From Acidobacteriota bacterium (GTDB taxonomy: Bacteria; Acidobacteriota; UBA890; WLXD01), in contig CAXWPH010000003.1 of assembly GCA_963666055.2 (NCBI GenBank), positions 128,678 to 192,677 on the forward strand: a DNA stretch of 64,000 bases. The letters run 5' to 3'. The first letter of the stretch is position 1; every line of letters starts with the position of its first letter. Shown here piece by piece: positions 5,218 to 15,376 of the stretch. A program made the position numbers and the translations under genes. The notes beneath the pieces are model-generated. The model worked only from the letters and a program-made list of their open reading frames with translations. It was not told the origin of the DNA and did not search any database.

Positions 5218-5805
5218 CTACGGATAGAGCATCCCACTCCGCCAGCCGCCGTCGTCGGTGCGCTCGAACACCGTGCGGTCGTGCAATCGTCCCAGCCGCG
5301 ATTCCCAGAATTCGATTCGCGAAGGATTCAGCAGATACCCTCCCCAGAATGCCGGGCGGGGGATCCTCTGTCCGAGCCGTCGCGCCTTTTCGGTGACGTA
5401 GGCGATGATCAGCTCTCGACGGCCCTGTAACGGTTCGCTTTGCCGCGACGCCCAGGCGCCGAGCTGGCTCTGGCGCGCCCGAGTGGCGAAGTAGGCGTCG
5501 GCTTCCGCCTCCGAGACCCGCGTAACGGTGCCCTCGACGCGGATCTGCTTGGCGAGGGTGGGCCAGTAGAAAACCAGCGCGGCGCGGGGGTTGGCGTCGA
5601 GCTCGCTGGCTTTGCGGCTGCCGTAGTTCGTGTAGAAGACAAAGCCGTGCTCGTCGGCGCACTTCAGCAGCACCATCCGCGCCGACGGCTGTCCTTCTGC
5701 CGTGGTGGTCGCCAGGGTCATGGCCGTGGCGCGCTGCGGCTCGCCGTTGCGTTCGGCCTGCCGCTGCAACTGCAGGAAGCGAGCGATGGGATCGTGGACG
5801 TGCAT
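5218..5805 (-). CDS. pdxH: Pyridoxamine 5'-phosphate oxidase
   Basis: AMTLAT, RMVLLK, FYTNYGSRK, SQLGAWAS.QS, WGGY, EFW..RLHDR motifs. Confidence 0.96.
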   Translation of the reverse strand: MHVHDPIARFLQLQRQAERNGEPQRATAMTLATTTAEGQPSARMVLLKCADEHGFVFYTNYGSRKASELDANPRAALVFYWPTLAKQIRVEGTVTRVSEAEADAYFATRARQSQLGAWASRQSEPLQGRRELIIAYVTEKARRLGQRIPRPAFWGGYLLNPSRIEFWESRLGRLHDRTVFERTDDGGWRSGMLYP

Positions 5806-6041
5806 GAGGTGATTATCGCCCGGACGGTGGTGCGGTGTGGCGCCGGGCGCCCGGATGAGGGGCCGTCGACCGCAGGCATGCCTGGCGCTCCGAGATTTCG
5901 GTGTTCACCAACCGGTAACGTGAGTCCGGCGAGACTCTCAAGTAATTGAAATAACTGATCTTAGAGATTTTTTCTGCGCCGGCTCAAGAAAAACGCGCGC
6001 CGCGCTTGCCGGAATGAAGCGTCCGTAGTTTGATCACTCGG

Positions 6042-6504
6042 GTCCGGATGATTGCCCCGGCCAAACGGGAGATTCGGAACCTGTTGAGGTCGCGAAACGA
6101 CCTCGAGTAGAGAACGGCTCGACGAGCCTGGAAGCGGACCCGCAAGGGGAAGCGAAAGGGCTCGGGGGATAAACGGGAGCTCGAGAGGGAGCCCGGGACG
6201 CCCGGGGAGGCGCTGGAAGCCCGCAAGGGTGGAAGGCGACTGCCTGAACGAGGTGGACCAGACGTTCGCAAGGACGAGTGGGAAGTTTCGACGGGGCTGG
6301 AAGGCGAACCCGCGAGGGGGAGCCGGAGAGCAACGGAGCCAACGGCACGTTCGTCAGAGTGATGCCGATGGCAGGGTCGACGGAAAGGCTCGCAAGAGTC
6401 GGGAAGTCGAGCCATAGAGGCGAAGGAAGCTCGAGGAAACGATCGCGATGGAGGGTTTCGGACCCCACGGGAGGCCGTCGCGGTAATCATCCGGGCATTT
6501 TTTT
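6042..6504 (+). ncRNA. Putative large structured ncRNA (~455 nt), family not recognised
   Basis: Closing helix 6042-6056/6482-6496 (15 bp incl. 2 G-U) followed by T7 (6498-6504); six GNRA-capped arms with symmetric purine internal loops; no credible ORF. Confidence 0.8.
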
Positions 6505-6641
6505 GGTACCCGGAATGGCCCGAGGGGATGCGGGGCGAACCTAGCGGAACAGCTGGTGTTCGCCTCGCTGGGGCGCCGTCAGCTGGGTGCTTTGCGGTGT
6601 CGGCTTACTAGCGGGTTGCTTTCCGTTCGTTCACCCGGGCG

Positions 6642-7445
6642 TCACCCATCGTCGAATGGCAACGGCTTGACGATCAGGTTGCGCCAGATACAGGCGGGAG
6701 CGACCGGTATGCGGACCTTCCACAGGGCGGTGCCGTCGATCTGGGGAGCCTCTAGCTGCACGTCGTAGAGACCCACTGCCAGGTCGTTGATCTCGAACCA
6801 GCCGTCGCTGTCGCTCAGATAAGTGCGGTTGTCGCCTTCCGCCACCTCCAAGCTGATTCTCACACCGGGGACCGGACCGCCAGGATCGAGGCGGAAGCCG
6901 CTAGGCCGCTCCGCGCCGAGAGGCAGTTGCTGACGCTCCCGGTAGACCATGCCATACAGCGACACGACCTTCTCGGCTGTCTCGAGGCCGCGCAGGTAGG
7001 CCAGATCCGTCTCGGCGTCTCTGGCTAGCCGGGTGCGCGAACAGATTCCGGTCTCATACCGGCCGGTACGAGCCGACTGGTTGGCGTAAACGAGGTAAGT
7101 GCGGTTCGTGGCGAACTGGAAGCCGCAGTCTCCGCCGCCGGCGCCGGTTGCCACGATCACCTCGCGCTTACCCTCGGCGCCACGCCACCGTTCTAGCACA
7201 CGCAAGGTTGCCAGGATCCTGATTTGCACCTCGCCGTCCGTTTCCTCGGTAACCGTGTCCAGGCGGGTCACCCGTCCGACAAAGATCGCGGCAGTCTGCC
7301 ACCACACCTCGCAGGCGGGGCGCTTCGGTGACATGCAGGAGCAACAGGCCGTGGCCGCTCCGTCAGTGCCGGGTGTCTCCAGTCCCAGAGTCGCGGGCGC
7401 CAGGCCCAGGATGACTGCCGCCAGCAGCGGCCGCAGGGGTTTCAT
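6642..7445 (-). CDS. Secreted TIMP-like protein (CSC...CG..F....YLVYA...C.RT) with C-terminal beta-sandwich domain
   Basis: Signal peptide; CSC, AIFVGRV, GDCGFQF, YLVYA, ICSRT; C-terminal SDSDGWFEINDLAVGLYDV resembles a carboxypeptidase-regulatory-like domain. Confidence 0.7.
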   Translation of the reverse strand: MKPLRPLLAAVILGLAPATLGLETPGTDGAATACCSCMSPKRPACEVWWQTAAIFVGRVTRLDTVTEETDGEVQIRILATLRVLERWRGAEGKREVIVATGAGGGDCGFQFATNRTYLVYANQSARTGRYETGICSRTRLARDAETDLAYLRGLETAEKVVSLYGMVYRERQQLPLGAERPSGFRLDPGGPVPGVRISLEVAEGDNRTYLSDSDGWFEINDLAVGLYDVQLEAPQIDGTALWKVRIPVAPACIWRNLIVKPLPFDDG

Positions 7446-7647
7446 TGTGGGATCCTCAAGGCGACGGAGATTGACACTACAAGCATACACAAACCGGGCG
7501 AACAGCGGTCCACGTCGGCTCAGTGTCAGGCGCGGCCGCTGTCGATCAGCTAACCTTCTCTAACGACGGGTTCGAGTTTCGAGGGGCGACGAATCGGGGT
7601 GTTCCCGCGTCCTGCGTTCCGAGGACACTTCTATTGGGAGAGCTTTC

Positions 7648-8208: not shown

Positions 8209-8283
8209 CGGGCCGATCACCTGACGCAGATGGCCCCATATCGACCCAGCAATACGCAATGAGTCTCTGATATATACAGGCCA

Positions 8284-8837
8284 CTAGCAGGCCGTGGTGA
8301 AAGTGTGATGGGTCTGGCGACAGGGTCTTGCGAAGTGGAGGCAAGGAGAGAGGAGGAGGCGATGGTTACCCCATCGTTGACGAGGAACGACGCAGGATAC
8401 GCGCGCCACCCCCTGTCGCCCGAAGGGTTACGTCGATTTGGGGCCATCTGCGGTGTTGGCCTTCCTCGACGATGGCTAGCAGGCCGTGGTGGAAGTGTGA
8501 CGGGCCTGGCGACAGGGTCTTGCGAAGTGGAGGCAAGGAGAGAGGAGGAGGCGATGGTTACCCCATCGTTGATGAGGAACGACGCAGGATACGCGCGCAA
8601 CCCCCTGTCGCCCGAAGGGTTACGGTGATTTGGGGCCATCTGCAGCGTTGGCCTTCCTCGACGATGGCTAGGGCATCGCCAGTGTCAGGCCGCCTTCCAT
8701 CTGGCCCCAACTCGCCGCAACCAGGCCCGCCACACTTCCACCACGGCCTGCTAGGGCATCGCCTGTGTCAGGCCGCCTTGCATCTGGCCCCAACTCGCCG
8801 TAACCAGACCCACCACACTTTCACCACGGCCTGCTAG
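8284..8837. mobile_element. Nested MITEs: one 275-bp copy inserted in the internal CTAG of another
   Basis: CTAG at 8284, 8476, 8668, 8751 and 8834 gives units of 192, 192, 83 and 83 bp. The 30-bp TIR variants pair outer-with-outer and inner-with-inner. Confidence 0.88.
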
Positions 8838-10351
8838 GGCGCAATCAGCTCTCTGAGGCGCTGGATGGGTACGCCCAGGTTGGATCCGCCGAACTCGGGC
8901 AACACCGCAGCGTTGAGAGCCACCACGGCTCCGTCGAGCGTCAGTACCGGGCCACCGGAGCCTCCGTGTGTTGTCTCGGCGTCGTAGACGATGGCTCCGG
9001 CAGTGATTTGGCCAATGCTGCCCACCGTGGCGAGCGGGGCCACATAACCACCGCGCGCCAGGTGTCCGGCAAGGTCCCAGAAGTCCACCGGGCCCTGGCC
9101 CAGGAGTCCCGAGACGAAGGTGGGATCAGCTCGGGCCAGAAGCGCCCGGATCCCGGTCGGGTAGCCCAGTACCAAGACCTCGTCGCCGATTTCCGGTACA
9201 GCCTCCGAGAGTCGGAGACCGGCGACGCGTTCGCCCAGGCCGGTGCTTCCTAGTATTGCCACGTCGGCCTGCGTATGGCCGGCCTGCACCGCCAGGTCGA
9301 ACGGCTCATCGACGCCCGGGAGGTAGCCGACGAGCCGTTGCATCGTCGGCGTGAAACCCTGCTCGATGAGGCGTTGCGCGGCGGCGTCGAACTCCCAGGG
9401 CATCGCGACGTGCCGATTCGTGGCGACGATATCGAGCTCGGCGAGCACGAACCCCGTGCCTGTGTAGCGGAGCTCCAGCGGTTCGCCCTGGCCATGCACC
9501 CCGAATACCGTCGGAGCGTTGCCGTTGGCCGCTCCTGCGGATCGCAAGACGCGCCCACTGCGCGGCTCCACGAACCCGTAGGATCCCTGTACGAAGACCA
9601 CGGCGGCCGATGCTGCCGAGATCACTCGTCCGCGCGCCGTAGCTCTGTTCTCGAGTGCTTCGATCCGGGCCAGGGTTTCGTTGATGCGAAAATCAAGCTG
9701 CGCTCGCACGTCGTTGAAGTCGTCGATCGTGAACGCGGCGCGCTCGGACGCCGCCAGCAGCTCGGTCAGCCCTTCGACGCGCTCTAGTTGGAGGCTGAGC
9801 TCGCGTTCCAGCCGGGCGTTGTGCGTCCAGAGCATGCCCAGTCCGGCGACGAGAGCAACGGATCCCAGCAAGAACGCCGCTCGAACAACCGGCCGCACCT
9901 GGGTGGCGAGCTCGCGGACCGGCCCCCAGATCAGGATGCCGATGCGGTCGAGCGTCCCGTGGCCACCGAGCTTGGCGCAGCTTTGGCAGTCGTCGAAGGC
10001 CTCGCGCACGCTCTTGTATGCGGCGCCGGCCACGCGTGGGCGGAAGCGCAAAAGCATGCCATGATCACCGATCTCGATGAGGTCGCCGGCGTGCAACGAT
10101 CGATTTCCGGCGCGCGCACCGTTCACCCACGCCTCGGTATCACCGTAGACGTCGAGATGCCAACCGTTGGTGTCGGCGACCAACGCGGCGATGGGCGGCT
10201 CGCCAACCCGCGGCTGCCCGTAGACGAGCTTGAGTCGGCCACCCTCTAGCGGTACGAGATGGGTGGTCCCGAAAACGCGTCGAGTACGGCCGCGCTCGGG
10301 TCCTGAGAGATGAACGAGCTGTGCCGCGGCGGCCGAAACGCTCTGTGTCAT
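8834..10351 (-). CDS. FHA-domain, membrane-anchored, coiled-coil trypsin-like serine protease
   Basis: N-terminal FHA-like WVNG...L.AGDLIEIG, TM helix, coiled coil, catalytic ATNRHV / DVAIL / GGSGGP. Confidence 0.8.
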   Translation of the reverse strand: MTQSVSAAAAQLVHLSGPERGRTRRVFGTTHLVPLEGGRLKLVYGQPRVGEPPIAALVADTNGWHLDVYGDTEAWVNGARAGNRSLHAGDLIEIGDHGMLLRFRPRVAGAAYKSVREAFDDCQSCAKLGGHGTLDRIGILIWGPVRELATQVRPVVRAAFLLGSVALVAGLGMLWTHNARLERELSLQLERVEGLTELLAASERAAFTIDDFNDVRAQLDFRINETLARIEALENRATARGRVISAASAAVVFVQGSYGFVEPRSGRVLRSAGAANGNAPTVFGVHGQGEPLELRYTGTGFVLAELDIVATNRHVAMPWEFDAAAQRLIEQGFTPTMQRLVGYLPGVDEPFDLAVQAGHTQADVAILGSTGLGERVAGLRLSEAVPEIGDEVLVLGYPTGIRALLARADPTFVSGLLGQGPVDFWDLAGHLARGGYVAPLATVGSIGQITAGAIVYDAETTHGGSGGPVLTLDGAVVALNAAVLPEFGGSNLGVPIQRLRELIAP

Positions 10352-14105: not shown

Positions 14106-15077
14106 CTATTCGAGCAGCTTGGTCTCAGGGTTGCTCAGGCTCCACGTATACCAGAACGTATCGAAACCGCCGAGTCGCGTGATCTCGCCGTCGAACTCCA
14201 TGCGCTGCGGATCGAAGCTCTCGCCGGTCACGTGGCGCCAAACACCATCGTCGTTGACGAAACCGTCGCCGGAAAAAGCTGCAGTGGAGGCGAACAGTGC
14301 CGCGTCGGGCTGCCGAAACAGGAAGAGTGCCCGCCCGCTCGACAGCGCGAACGCCGCGCCTCCTTTGATGCGATCGTGGGTAACGGCGTAGCGTCCCCCA
14401 TCGGCTTCGAACGCGTAAATCGGCGTCTTGGTGTCGAGGCGTGGGTCGTCGGCGAGTTGGCCCCCGAATCCGTCCTCACGCGCCCAGTAGTCGGTGTATA
14501 CGTCGCGTGTGTACTGCTGTCCTTGAATCGACAGGACGAGCGTGTCGGGGTGCTGTTGCCTCCAGTCCTGCCAACTGACCTTGGAGCCGGTGGGCAACTC
14601 TACGAGCTTGGTGCCGAGGTAGGCGCCGCCTACGGACTCACCGCGCATGATTGCCCAGTACGAGTCGGTTTGCTTGTCCTGCATGACCAGCGAGCTGTTC
14701 ATGAGACCACCAGACGCTTCGAACTGCAGCTCCTCGCCACCGTACTCTCGGCTGTACACGACAGCCGTATTCGCCAGCGGTCACCAGACCGCCGCATAGG
14801 CGGTATCGCCGATCTTGTCGTTGACGATCTCGTAGGCGTTGAGCAAGTTGATACTGAACGCGCGCGCCTGCCCTTCGATGACGATCCCCAGCATCCAGGC
14901 TTCGTCCGGGACATCCGCAGCGCCGGCTTCGACCCATTCCGGCTGATCGATCGACGGGATCTGGCCACGTGGCAAAACCTGCTTGAACCCGGGTGGTTGC
15001 TGCGTTGCGCATGCGGCCAGCGTCATCACCGGGGCCACCAAGATCCGTGCGAGCTTTCGGGAGGAATCGGTTTCCAT
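14106..15077 (-). CDS. DUF3179 family lipoprotein, probable selenoprotein (UGA at 14783-14781)
   Basis: Lipobox LAAC; IPSIDQP, EIVND, then in-frame W-UGA-P-L-A at the family's CPL Cys position; SGGL.NS.LVM.D.QT.S.W downstream; SECIS-like hairpin. Confidence 0.85.
14749..14767 (-). promoter_or_regulatory. Putative bacterial SECIS hairpin (DUF3179 gene)
   Basis: CGGCTGT-CGTGT-ACAGCCG, perfect 7-bp stem starting 13 nt after UGA. Confidence 0.7.
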
Positions 15078-15085
15078 GTGCACCC

Positions 15086-15258
15086 CTAGCAGGCTGTTGT
15101 GGAAGGGTTTCGTAACCCTTCGGGCGACAGGGGGTGGCACGCGTATGCTGCGTCGTTCGTCGTCAACGATGGGGCGGCCATCGCTCCTCCCTTCTTCTTG
15201 CTTTGGCCTCGCAAGACCCTGTGGCCAGGCCCGCCACACTTCCACCACCGTCTGCCAG
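15086..15258 (-). mobile_element. MITE family 1, short copy
   Basis: Reverse complement of the 8284 element's left ~150 bp; ends CTAGCAGGCTGTTGTGGAAG and CTTCCACCACCGTCTGCCAG. Confidence 0.8.
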
Positions 15259-15376
15259 TGTCGTGACTCAAGACACTAGATTCTCCTACCCACGGTACGG
15301 CGGGCCAAGGATCGACGCGGGTGCAGAAGCAGGGCAGTGTGGCGTGCCTTACAAAGGCTTGCCCGACAAGGTGTCT

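Follow-up and report, generated by a model that had tools for sequence, protein, structure and literature searches.

What lies in the gap between pdxH and the next gene downstream, at positions 6042-6504 (+) of the window (the whole 64,000-nt stretch of an Acidobacteriota contig, CAXWPH010000003.1, analysed here), and what might its product do? The original prediction placed here an undescribed large non-coding RNA (ncRNA) selected for its structure. This is borne out by the lack of any Rfam match, by covariation and by discrete transcript cover: the region is a free-standing ncRNA gene, conserved and transcribed, which runs for 455 nt to the end of its closing stem and is followed by U7 (Table 1). 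The closing helix (6042-56/6482-96), its extension CGGCC/GGCCG (6058-62/6473-77) and the U7 tract are all present as quoted. The plus strand folds as one closed unit, as proposed: the minimum free energy predicted for 6030-6510 is -224.7 kcal/mol (z -6.46, 0/100 shuffles as good), and the minus strand of the same interval has a z of -1.58, with 7/100 shuffles as good. Even at loose thresholds, Rfam returned nothing for the window, as had been expected, or for related loci (11, 13, 6, 1 and 6 of them). The RNA is not RNase P, SRP or tmRNA, copies of each of which were found elsewhere in the host genome (G000).

Table 1. Features of the ncRNA locus and its neighbours (window positions).
Feature	Position	Strand	Basis or remark
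ncRNA gene, long form of type I	6042..6504	+	fold, homologs, RNA contigs
Predicted -35 hexamer TTGCCG	6006..6011	+	pattern kept in long forms
Predicted -10 hexamer TTTGAT, without the usual A at second position	6029..6034	+	pattern kept in long forms
Basal module, 5' strand, common to all four paralog types	6042..6062	+	
Basal module, 3' strand, family signature GGGAGGCC-(N)-UCG-Y-GR	6467..6496	+	
Kink-turn, bulged strand (GUU bulge, GA, G)	6083..6088	+	strict kink-turn rule
Kink-turn, non-bulged strand (G at 3n, GA)	6450..6452	+	
5' strand of the upper rod, with 6417-6449 as its partner; local hairpin as an alternative for 6088-6102	6089..6120	+	
Arm 1, GCAA loop	6123..6165	+	
Arm 2, GAGA loop	6166..6203	+	
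Arm 3, GCAA loop; 20-nt stretch found three times in the 502-nt form (G007)	6204..6245	+	
Arm 4, GCAA loop	6250..6289	+	
Arm 5, GCGA loop; 20/21 nt identical to a stretch of G000's own 16S rRNA	6292..6335	+	
Arm 6, GUCA loop, as predicted for the 343- and 502-nt forms too	6338..6372	+	
Arm 7, GCAA loop	6374..6413	+	
Likely terminator: U tract following the basal stem	6498..6504	+	T run after the stem in homologs too
pdxH, divergent neighbour, outside the element	5218..5805	-	upstream neighbour at 8 long-form loci
Convergent downstream gene, 282 aa, weak CarboxypepD_reg match	6642..7490	-	Pfam

The predicted fold is a long rod (~80 nt per strand) with a kink-turn at nt ~45, a motif absent from the original prediction, and a seven-armed apex. 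The six arms that had been listed are all where they were placed, and a seventh (6338-6372, with its GUCA loop) had been overlooked; this arm occupies UGGC at 6369-72, so arm 7 is better drawn as in Table 1, both pairings being possible. A supposed UUCG hairpin at 6453-65 is instead the 3' strand of the long rod, paired with 6066-82, and 4/6 close homologs have UUCC in place of UUCG at this site. A second small hairpin, at 6086-6104, competes with the rod helix beside the kink-turn and costs 9.6 kcal/mol in a single-sequence fold; five of its pairs are nevertheless kept in 11/11 long homologs, and it may represent a second conformation.

A conserved protein-coding signal was looked for and is absent: single-base gaps occur at several columns among six close homologs, no Pfam match was found for the overlapping ORFs (2/3 ORFs tested), and the lengths of the family sequences differ modulo 3, which also counts against coding. 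A DNA repeat or mobile element was rejected, as the element is single copy in G000 and has no viral matches (0 for the type I 3' pattern, described below, among viral contigs).

Parts of 5700-6900 are present in 12 RNA-labelled records, of which four runs from three studies were examined (two labelled sponge metagenome, and one RNA only by guess). Each of the four contains one exact contig inside 6047-6473 and has no cover of the flanks at 5500-6009 or 6520-7000. Contigs thus cover the element and not its surroundings, as a discrete transcript should appear; they give neither its strand nor its true ends, and the strand is taken from the promoter, the U tract and the G-U pairs. Depths of the exact-match contigs are 55.5, 32, 2050 and 7. 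The depth of 55.5 for the window RNA in run X1 compares with 2.9 for the exact contig of tmRNA; by this rough measure, the window RNA is abundant. DNA carry-over is argued against by a 14-kb control around tmRNA, in which no long exact mRNA contig was found among the pieces listed (84 further pieces exist). Sediment runs X9-X14 contain small shares of the region only. The contig of depth 2050 (run X4) joins 6466 to 6065, giving a 402-nt circle across the 7-nt direct repeat ACGGGAG. Template switching at the stem is likelier here than a circular RNA, because the other runs hold linear sequence from 6047/6053 (two stop at 6473).

Homologs with compensatory changes were found in related genomes, as the original prediction had anticipated. 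Both ends of the RNA recur in these relatives, with widely differing distances between them: pattern and model searches yielded 51 distinct full-length sequences, of which 38 measure 167-171 nt and 13 measure 343-502 nt. At eight loci, no 5' end could be detected by regex: five are 3'-half remnants, and the rest are a chance match, a further complete short form and a long form cut off by its contig. The host class comprises 26 genomes in two families, f1 (11) and f2 (15). The 3' motif is found in 24/26 of them versus 0/375 other Acidobacteriota (including the unpublished G047, counted only as a negative), a reversed-pattern control gives 0, and 25/26 class genomes have either this motif or the type III RNA described below. 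Several apparent outliers were rejected: L068 is a chance match with no 5' partner, and a search of 151 genomes with model R3 gave only three weak, coding-like matches outside the class (G044, G061 and G146, 22-28 bits). The 21-nt matches at query 305-325 are rRNA-type (shown for G000), other short matches outside the class being uncounted.

The family falls into four paralog types, all of which have the basal stem with GGGAGGC on its 3' strand, a promoter of the -35/-10 type and a T run. Short forms include type I (orthologs of the window RNA) and its paralog type II; type I, counting long forms, is present in 18/26 class genomes. The 3' half of type II stands alone, fused to upstream sequence, in some small genomes (L137, L138, L103, L107, L117) and is a decaying copy. 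Type III (93 nt), found with a model of types I and II, is present in 15/15 f2 genomes (one weak match) and 0/11 f1 genomes. It lies upstream of, and on the same strand as, a homoserine dehydrogenase gene (L181, L192 and related f2 loci) and could double as a leader; it is retained in 5/5 of the smallest genomes (1.2-3.4 Mb). Type IV (~290 nt) is the second member in G000 (L197:2950-3248; G000:C15 about 499453-499747, +), where it was found by motif scan, head-to-head with carD and with a near-consensus promoter. DNA search recovered type IV in 8/61 genomes, all f1 and all beside carD (8/8 loci). Among five further genomes inspected, it was found in two (G005, and by eye G011 of f2) and is missing beside carD in three (G008, G012 and G014). 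Type IV has no Rfam match, and its conserved GCCCC loop could form a pseudoknot with a downstream GGGGC. In G000, just two members match a profile of the 3' strand, the window RNA and type IV; genomes carry two to four paralogs with similar promoters, and up to four occur in one genome (G011).

Could the window RNA be a 5' leader? This was rejected because both flanking genes are on the minus strand, and because neighbours vary by type: citrate synthase or DegP-like genes (f2 type I), an SNF transporter (type II) and homoserine dehydrogenase (type III). The downstream gene had been described as TIMP-like, which we were unable to confirm, as NCBIfam gave nothing beside the weak Pfam match in Table 1. 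Upstream, the arrangement TTG-N3, 17 nt, TT(T/G)(G/C)AT is kept in 13/13 long forms; this promoter went uncalled when the window was scanned for sigma-70 promoters. Short-form promoters of f2 differ, with TTGAC(A/G) and a -10 of the TA...T type. In family f1, the type I -10 has the form TT(T/G)nAT/TTTATT in 14/14 cases, lacking the usual A at the second position, which may reflect dependence on an activator or alternative sigma factor. The exact G000 promoter arrangement occurs once in that genome.

Other features were observed in passing. Window positions 8217-8840 and 14983-15279 contain near-identical ~165-nt repeats (two in tandem near 8280-8630, and a related one near 15000-15280) that yield repetitive pseudo-ORFs and look like a dispersed repeat family. 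ARAGORN predicts two tRNA-Sec genes and one CUA-anticodon tRNA labelled Pyl in G000 (C5, C6, C13); these are predictions only.

Selection on the fold is seen in type II, in which 96.5% of cells are paired (32-51% in slid controls) and 13/48 pairs have changes on both sides, a score that 0/500 shuffles reached. In the long forms (n=11, two genera), 88% of cells are paired and 34/143 pairs have both-side changes, these relatives not being independent of one another; a measure of further pair types in the same 11 sequences is not above shuffles. The same seven arms occur in the same order in both genera of long forms. A strict kink-turn rule (C-stem, 3-nt bulge, tandem G.A/A.G, NC stem, G at 3n) is satisfied at nt 44-52 by 44/51 family sequences versus 0/23 phylum 6S RNAs and 25/10200 shuffles (0.25%).

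Rod length is alike in long and short forms (~80 nt per strand), and change is confined to the apex. In a tree of RNase Y from 13 genomes of the class plus 15 outgroups, f2 (short forms) is sister to f1, within which G005 (168 nt) branches first; the nine genomes with long forms make up one clade (95/89). The apex has therefore expanded once, within one family, from one arm to 4-7 arms (four in the 343-nt form and seven in most; 343-502 nt overall). The apical arm of the short forms consists of a short stem, a purine loop, 3 bp and a GNRA or UUCG loop. Because this is the architecture of the long-form arms as well, the latter are best read as copies of the ancestral apical arm. Under any functional reading, the expansion may have been largely neutral.

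A possible clue to function is the apparent loss of 6S RNA from this class. The Rfam 6S model (RF00013) matches 0/26 class genomes versus 24/35 outside the class, and a second model (R2), made from the 6S RNAs of this phylum (n=22), has no credible match in those 26; its two weak matches there (G010 and G020) are partial, that of G010 lying in coding-like sequence. In the phylum, zapA is upstream of 6S at 22/24 loci. The zapA-rny gap persists at 13/13 class loci with zapA (about 170-265 nt, poorly conserved), none of which contains 6S; this gap, at L155:3252-3450 in G000 (G000:C1 92251-92449) and at L158-L170, is possibly a 6S vestige serving as the rny leader.

We consider it possible, at a probability of roughly 40%, that the family is a non-homologous RNA polymerase (RNAP)-binding RNA acting in place of the lost 6S, by analogy with Ms1 or CoRP, with a multivalent apex in its long forms. 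This proposal comes from the finding of a class-wide, class-restricted rod of 6S size where 6S is undetected: a 6S-like rod of ~160-200 nt with paired ends is present in 38/38 short forms (the window form being 455 nt), and the 6S length given in PMC11077062 is ~180 nt. The kinked rod would be offered to RNAP, as core or holoenzyme (as for Ms1/CoRP), as a bent nucleic-acid decoy, and polymerase bound to it would be stored or buffered. The kink-turn should fold in Mg2+ without protein. The basal module common to the 93-, 168- and ~290-nt paralogs would be the shared putative binding site, and the core function would not reside in the arms. As rigid helices with purine-purine pairs and GNRA loops to close them, these would make the RNA more stable and offer further docking sites.

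Several observations support the RNAP-binding reading. One paralog adjoins the gene for the RNAP factor CarD, and the window RNA is abundant as judged by contig depth. Unrelated RNAs bind RNAP in Actinobacteria without 6S (PMC11077062; PMC9130861): the former describes Ms1 (~300 nt), CoRP (516 nt) and scr0792 (~85 nt) as RNAP-bound in lineages without 6S, and its authors suggest that each species has one RNA of this kind. Other common partners are also undetected: CsrA (PF02599; control matched in 3/14), L7Ae, TROVE/Ro60 (PF05731), Hfq and ProQ were each found in 0/5 class genomes, the five for each search being drawn from G000, G005, G007, G011, G012 and G016.

Other observations weaken it. 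Homology to 6S and an open central bubble are both absent. All ten outside genomes that were re-searched lack both a detectable 6S and this family (10/10), showing that loss of 6S does not call for this family; these genomes (G028, G030, G031, G038, G043, G047, G049, G050, G059 and G060; 91-100% complete, with no 6S by Rfam or R2) are candidates for further RNAP-binding RNAs. Adjacency to carD is limited to type IV and fails in the three inspected genomes named above. Finally, up to four paralogs per genome recall sponges: sets of several paralogs are commoner among protein sponges than among RNAP-binding RNAs.

A sponge or scaffold for an RNA-binding protein yet to be named is the strongest competitor, though a somewhat unlikely one: the basal module, and each arm of the long forms, would bind a small regulator, and paralogs and arm multiplication would raise capacity as in Csr/Rsm RNAs. 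CsrB/RsmZ-type sponges are purine-rich, with many GGA motifs in hairpin loops, several paralogs and modular repeats. The family shares their purine richness, modularity and paralogs (two to four per genome, with similar promoters and one common motif), the arms resemble copies of the ancestral apical module (with the thrice-repeated arm stretch of G007), and the 455-nt form contains 27 GGA triplets. However, these triplets are located in internal loops predicted to be closed by purine pairs, not in open hairpin loops, the arms are GNRA-capped, most members have a single arm, and the usual partners are those undetected above. This lineage is rich in abundant ncRNAs in genomes where the usual RNA chaperones were undetected (0/5 each). 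Multivalency, whether as sponge or by self-assembly, had been suggested as the function of the window RNA; we do not favour it as the main one because what is conserved and ancestral is a 168-nt rod with one arm, the multiplication of arms having come later in one lineage, and it can explain the derived apex only.

Returning to the RNAP-binding reading, its fullest version strikes us as rather unlikely: a fourth, independently evolved class of RNAP-sequestering RNA in which a kink-turn replaces the open-promoter bubble, paralogs of 93-502 nt are built on one basal module, and the seven-armed GNRA apex of one lineage would be a multivalent particle clustering polymerase or other proteins.

An RNA-only architecture appears improbable. 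Here GNRA loops would dock into helices, either within one copy or between copies, and the product would be a particle, compact or oligomeric, of the OLE, ROOL or GOLLD kind. Six GNRA loops are predicted on rigid arms around one junction in the 455-nt form, a G at 3n permits kink-turn folding in metal ions alone (PMC4382518), and ROOL and GOLLD cages are built by A-minor and kissing contacts (PMC12286853). Against this, the ancestral form is single-armed, neither the number of arms nor the length is constant (343-502 nt), kissing loops are impossible for tetraloops, no pseudoknot is seen in type I, and the gene is chromosomal, with its 3' pattern absent from viral contigs.

Still less probable is a true but extremely diverged 6S RNA that has moved from zapA-rny and still templates pRNA from a bulge at nt 42-47. 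Membership in 6S was our first idea, as the short forms are 6S-sized, and was rejected: there is no homology in either direction and no model score. RF00013 and R2 (filters off, seven family loci) gave no match, no phylum 6S motif is present in the family, and its loci do not share the zapA-6S-rny synteny. The bulge does lie at the position of the 6S pRNA start (nt 40 in B. subtilis 6S-1; PMC8876501), and the competing hairpin beside it is the one kept in all long forms. In simulations of a pRNA block, a 3' hairpin forms in 34/51 family RNAs and 20/22 6S RNAs, counts with no null set that do not discriminate between the two. Within nt 31-75, an unpaired run of 10 is attained by 1/51 family sequences but by only 3/22 true 6S RNAs; this test being weak, our verdict that there is no open bubble rests on base composition (loops are short, and unpaired bases are 12-18% pyrimidine versus 45% in phylum 6S) and on the conserved kink-turn.

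Least probable of all is a ribosome-linked RNA whose arms mimic rRNA helix tips, binding ribosomal proteins or assembly factors, or whose GGGAGG engages the anti-Shine-Dalgarno end: the arm 5 match to 16S rRNA has an E of 1.5e-4 in 6.5 kb, other arms match a second 16S stretch over 12-15 nt and GGGAGG is invariant, but sharing of 10- and 12-mers with the rRNA operon is within the range of random genome stretches for 13/13 long forms (so that overall rRNA mimicry was rejected as not above background), the 16S match amounts to a single generic module (a 3x3 purine loop, then 3 bp and GNRA), and the GG of GGGAGG is paired in a helix.

Comparison with known systems places the family apart from each. 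Like 6S (RF00013), it is free-standing and abundant with paired 5' and 3' ends, an ancestral rod of similar length and the possibility of paralogs; unlike 6S, it has no sequence or model similarity, has a kink-turn for an open bubble, is not at zapA-rny and can carry a seven-arm junction at its apex. Bacterial Y RNAs vary in their apical domain while the basal stem is conserved, and usually have an adjacent Ro60/Rsr gene; the family follows the same basal/apical logic, but no TROVE/Ro60 gene or Rfam match was found. CoRP and Ms1 of Actinobacteria are also large, lineage-restricted, intergenic and of fitting size in groups without 6S (PMC11077062 and PMC9130861). They belong to another phylum, no Rfam match links the family to them, and RNAP binding is shown for them and predicted here. 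OLE, ROOL and GOLLD are likewise large multi-stem bacterial ncRNAs, but those RNAs use kissing loops and pseudoknots, and ROOL and GOLLD are often phage-linked (PMC12286853). The window RNA instead has a single large junction, is a chromosomal gene and derives from a 168-nt rod, and no Rfam model of the OLE, ROOL, GOLLD or raiA type matches it. The RNAs manA and EGFOA and an engineered kink-turn RNA are treated in 10.64898/2026.07.01.735769. We found no published description of the family, a member of which could still be listed in motif-survey supplements or subscription papers.

The family is a real RNA class, and a new one, whose derived form is striking; its novelty concerns the RNA class, and in function it may converge with something already known. 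It is rare for a new class of large bacterial ncRNA to be both abundant and conserved. The size series of 93, 168, 290, 343, 455 and 502 nt on a resolved tree presents an ornate RNA that appears to have grown from a rod by arm copying. The proposal that bacteria without 6S carry unrelated RNAP-binding RNAs missed by sequence search (PMC11077062) becomes directly testable here: in vitro transcripts of the 168-nt and 455-nt forms could be tried on purified RNAP, for which culture of the host is unnecessary.
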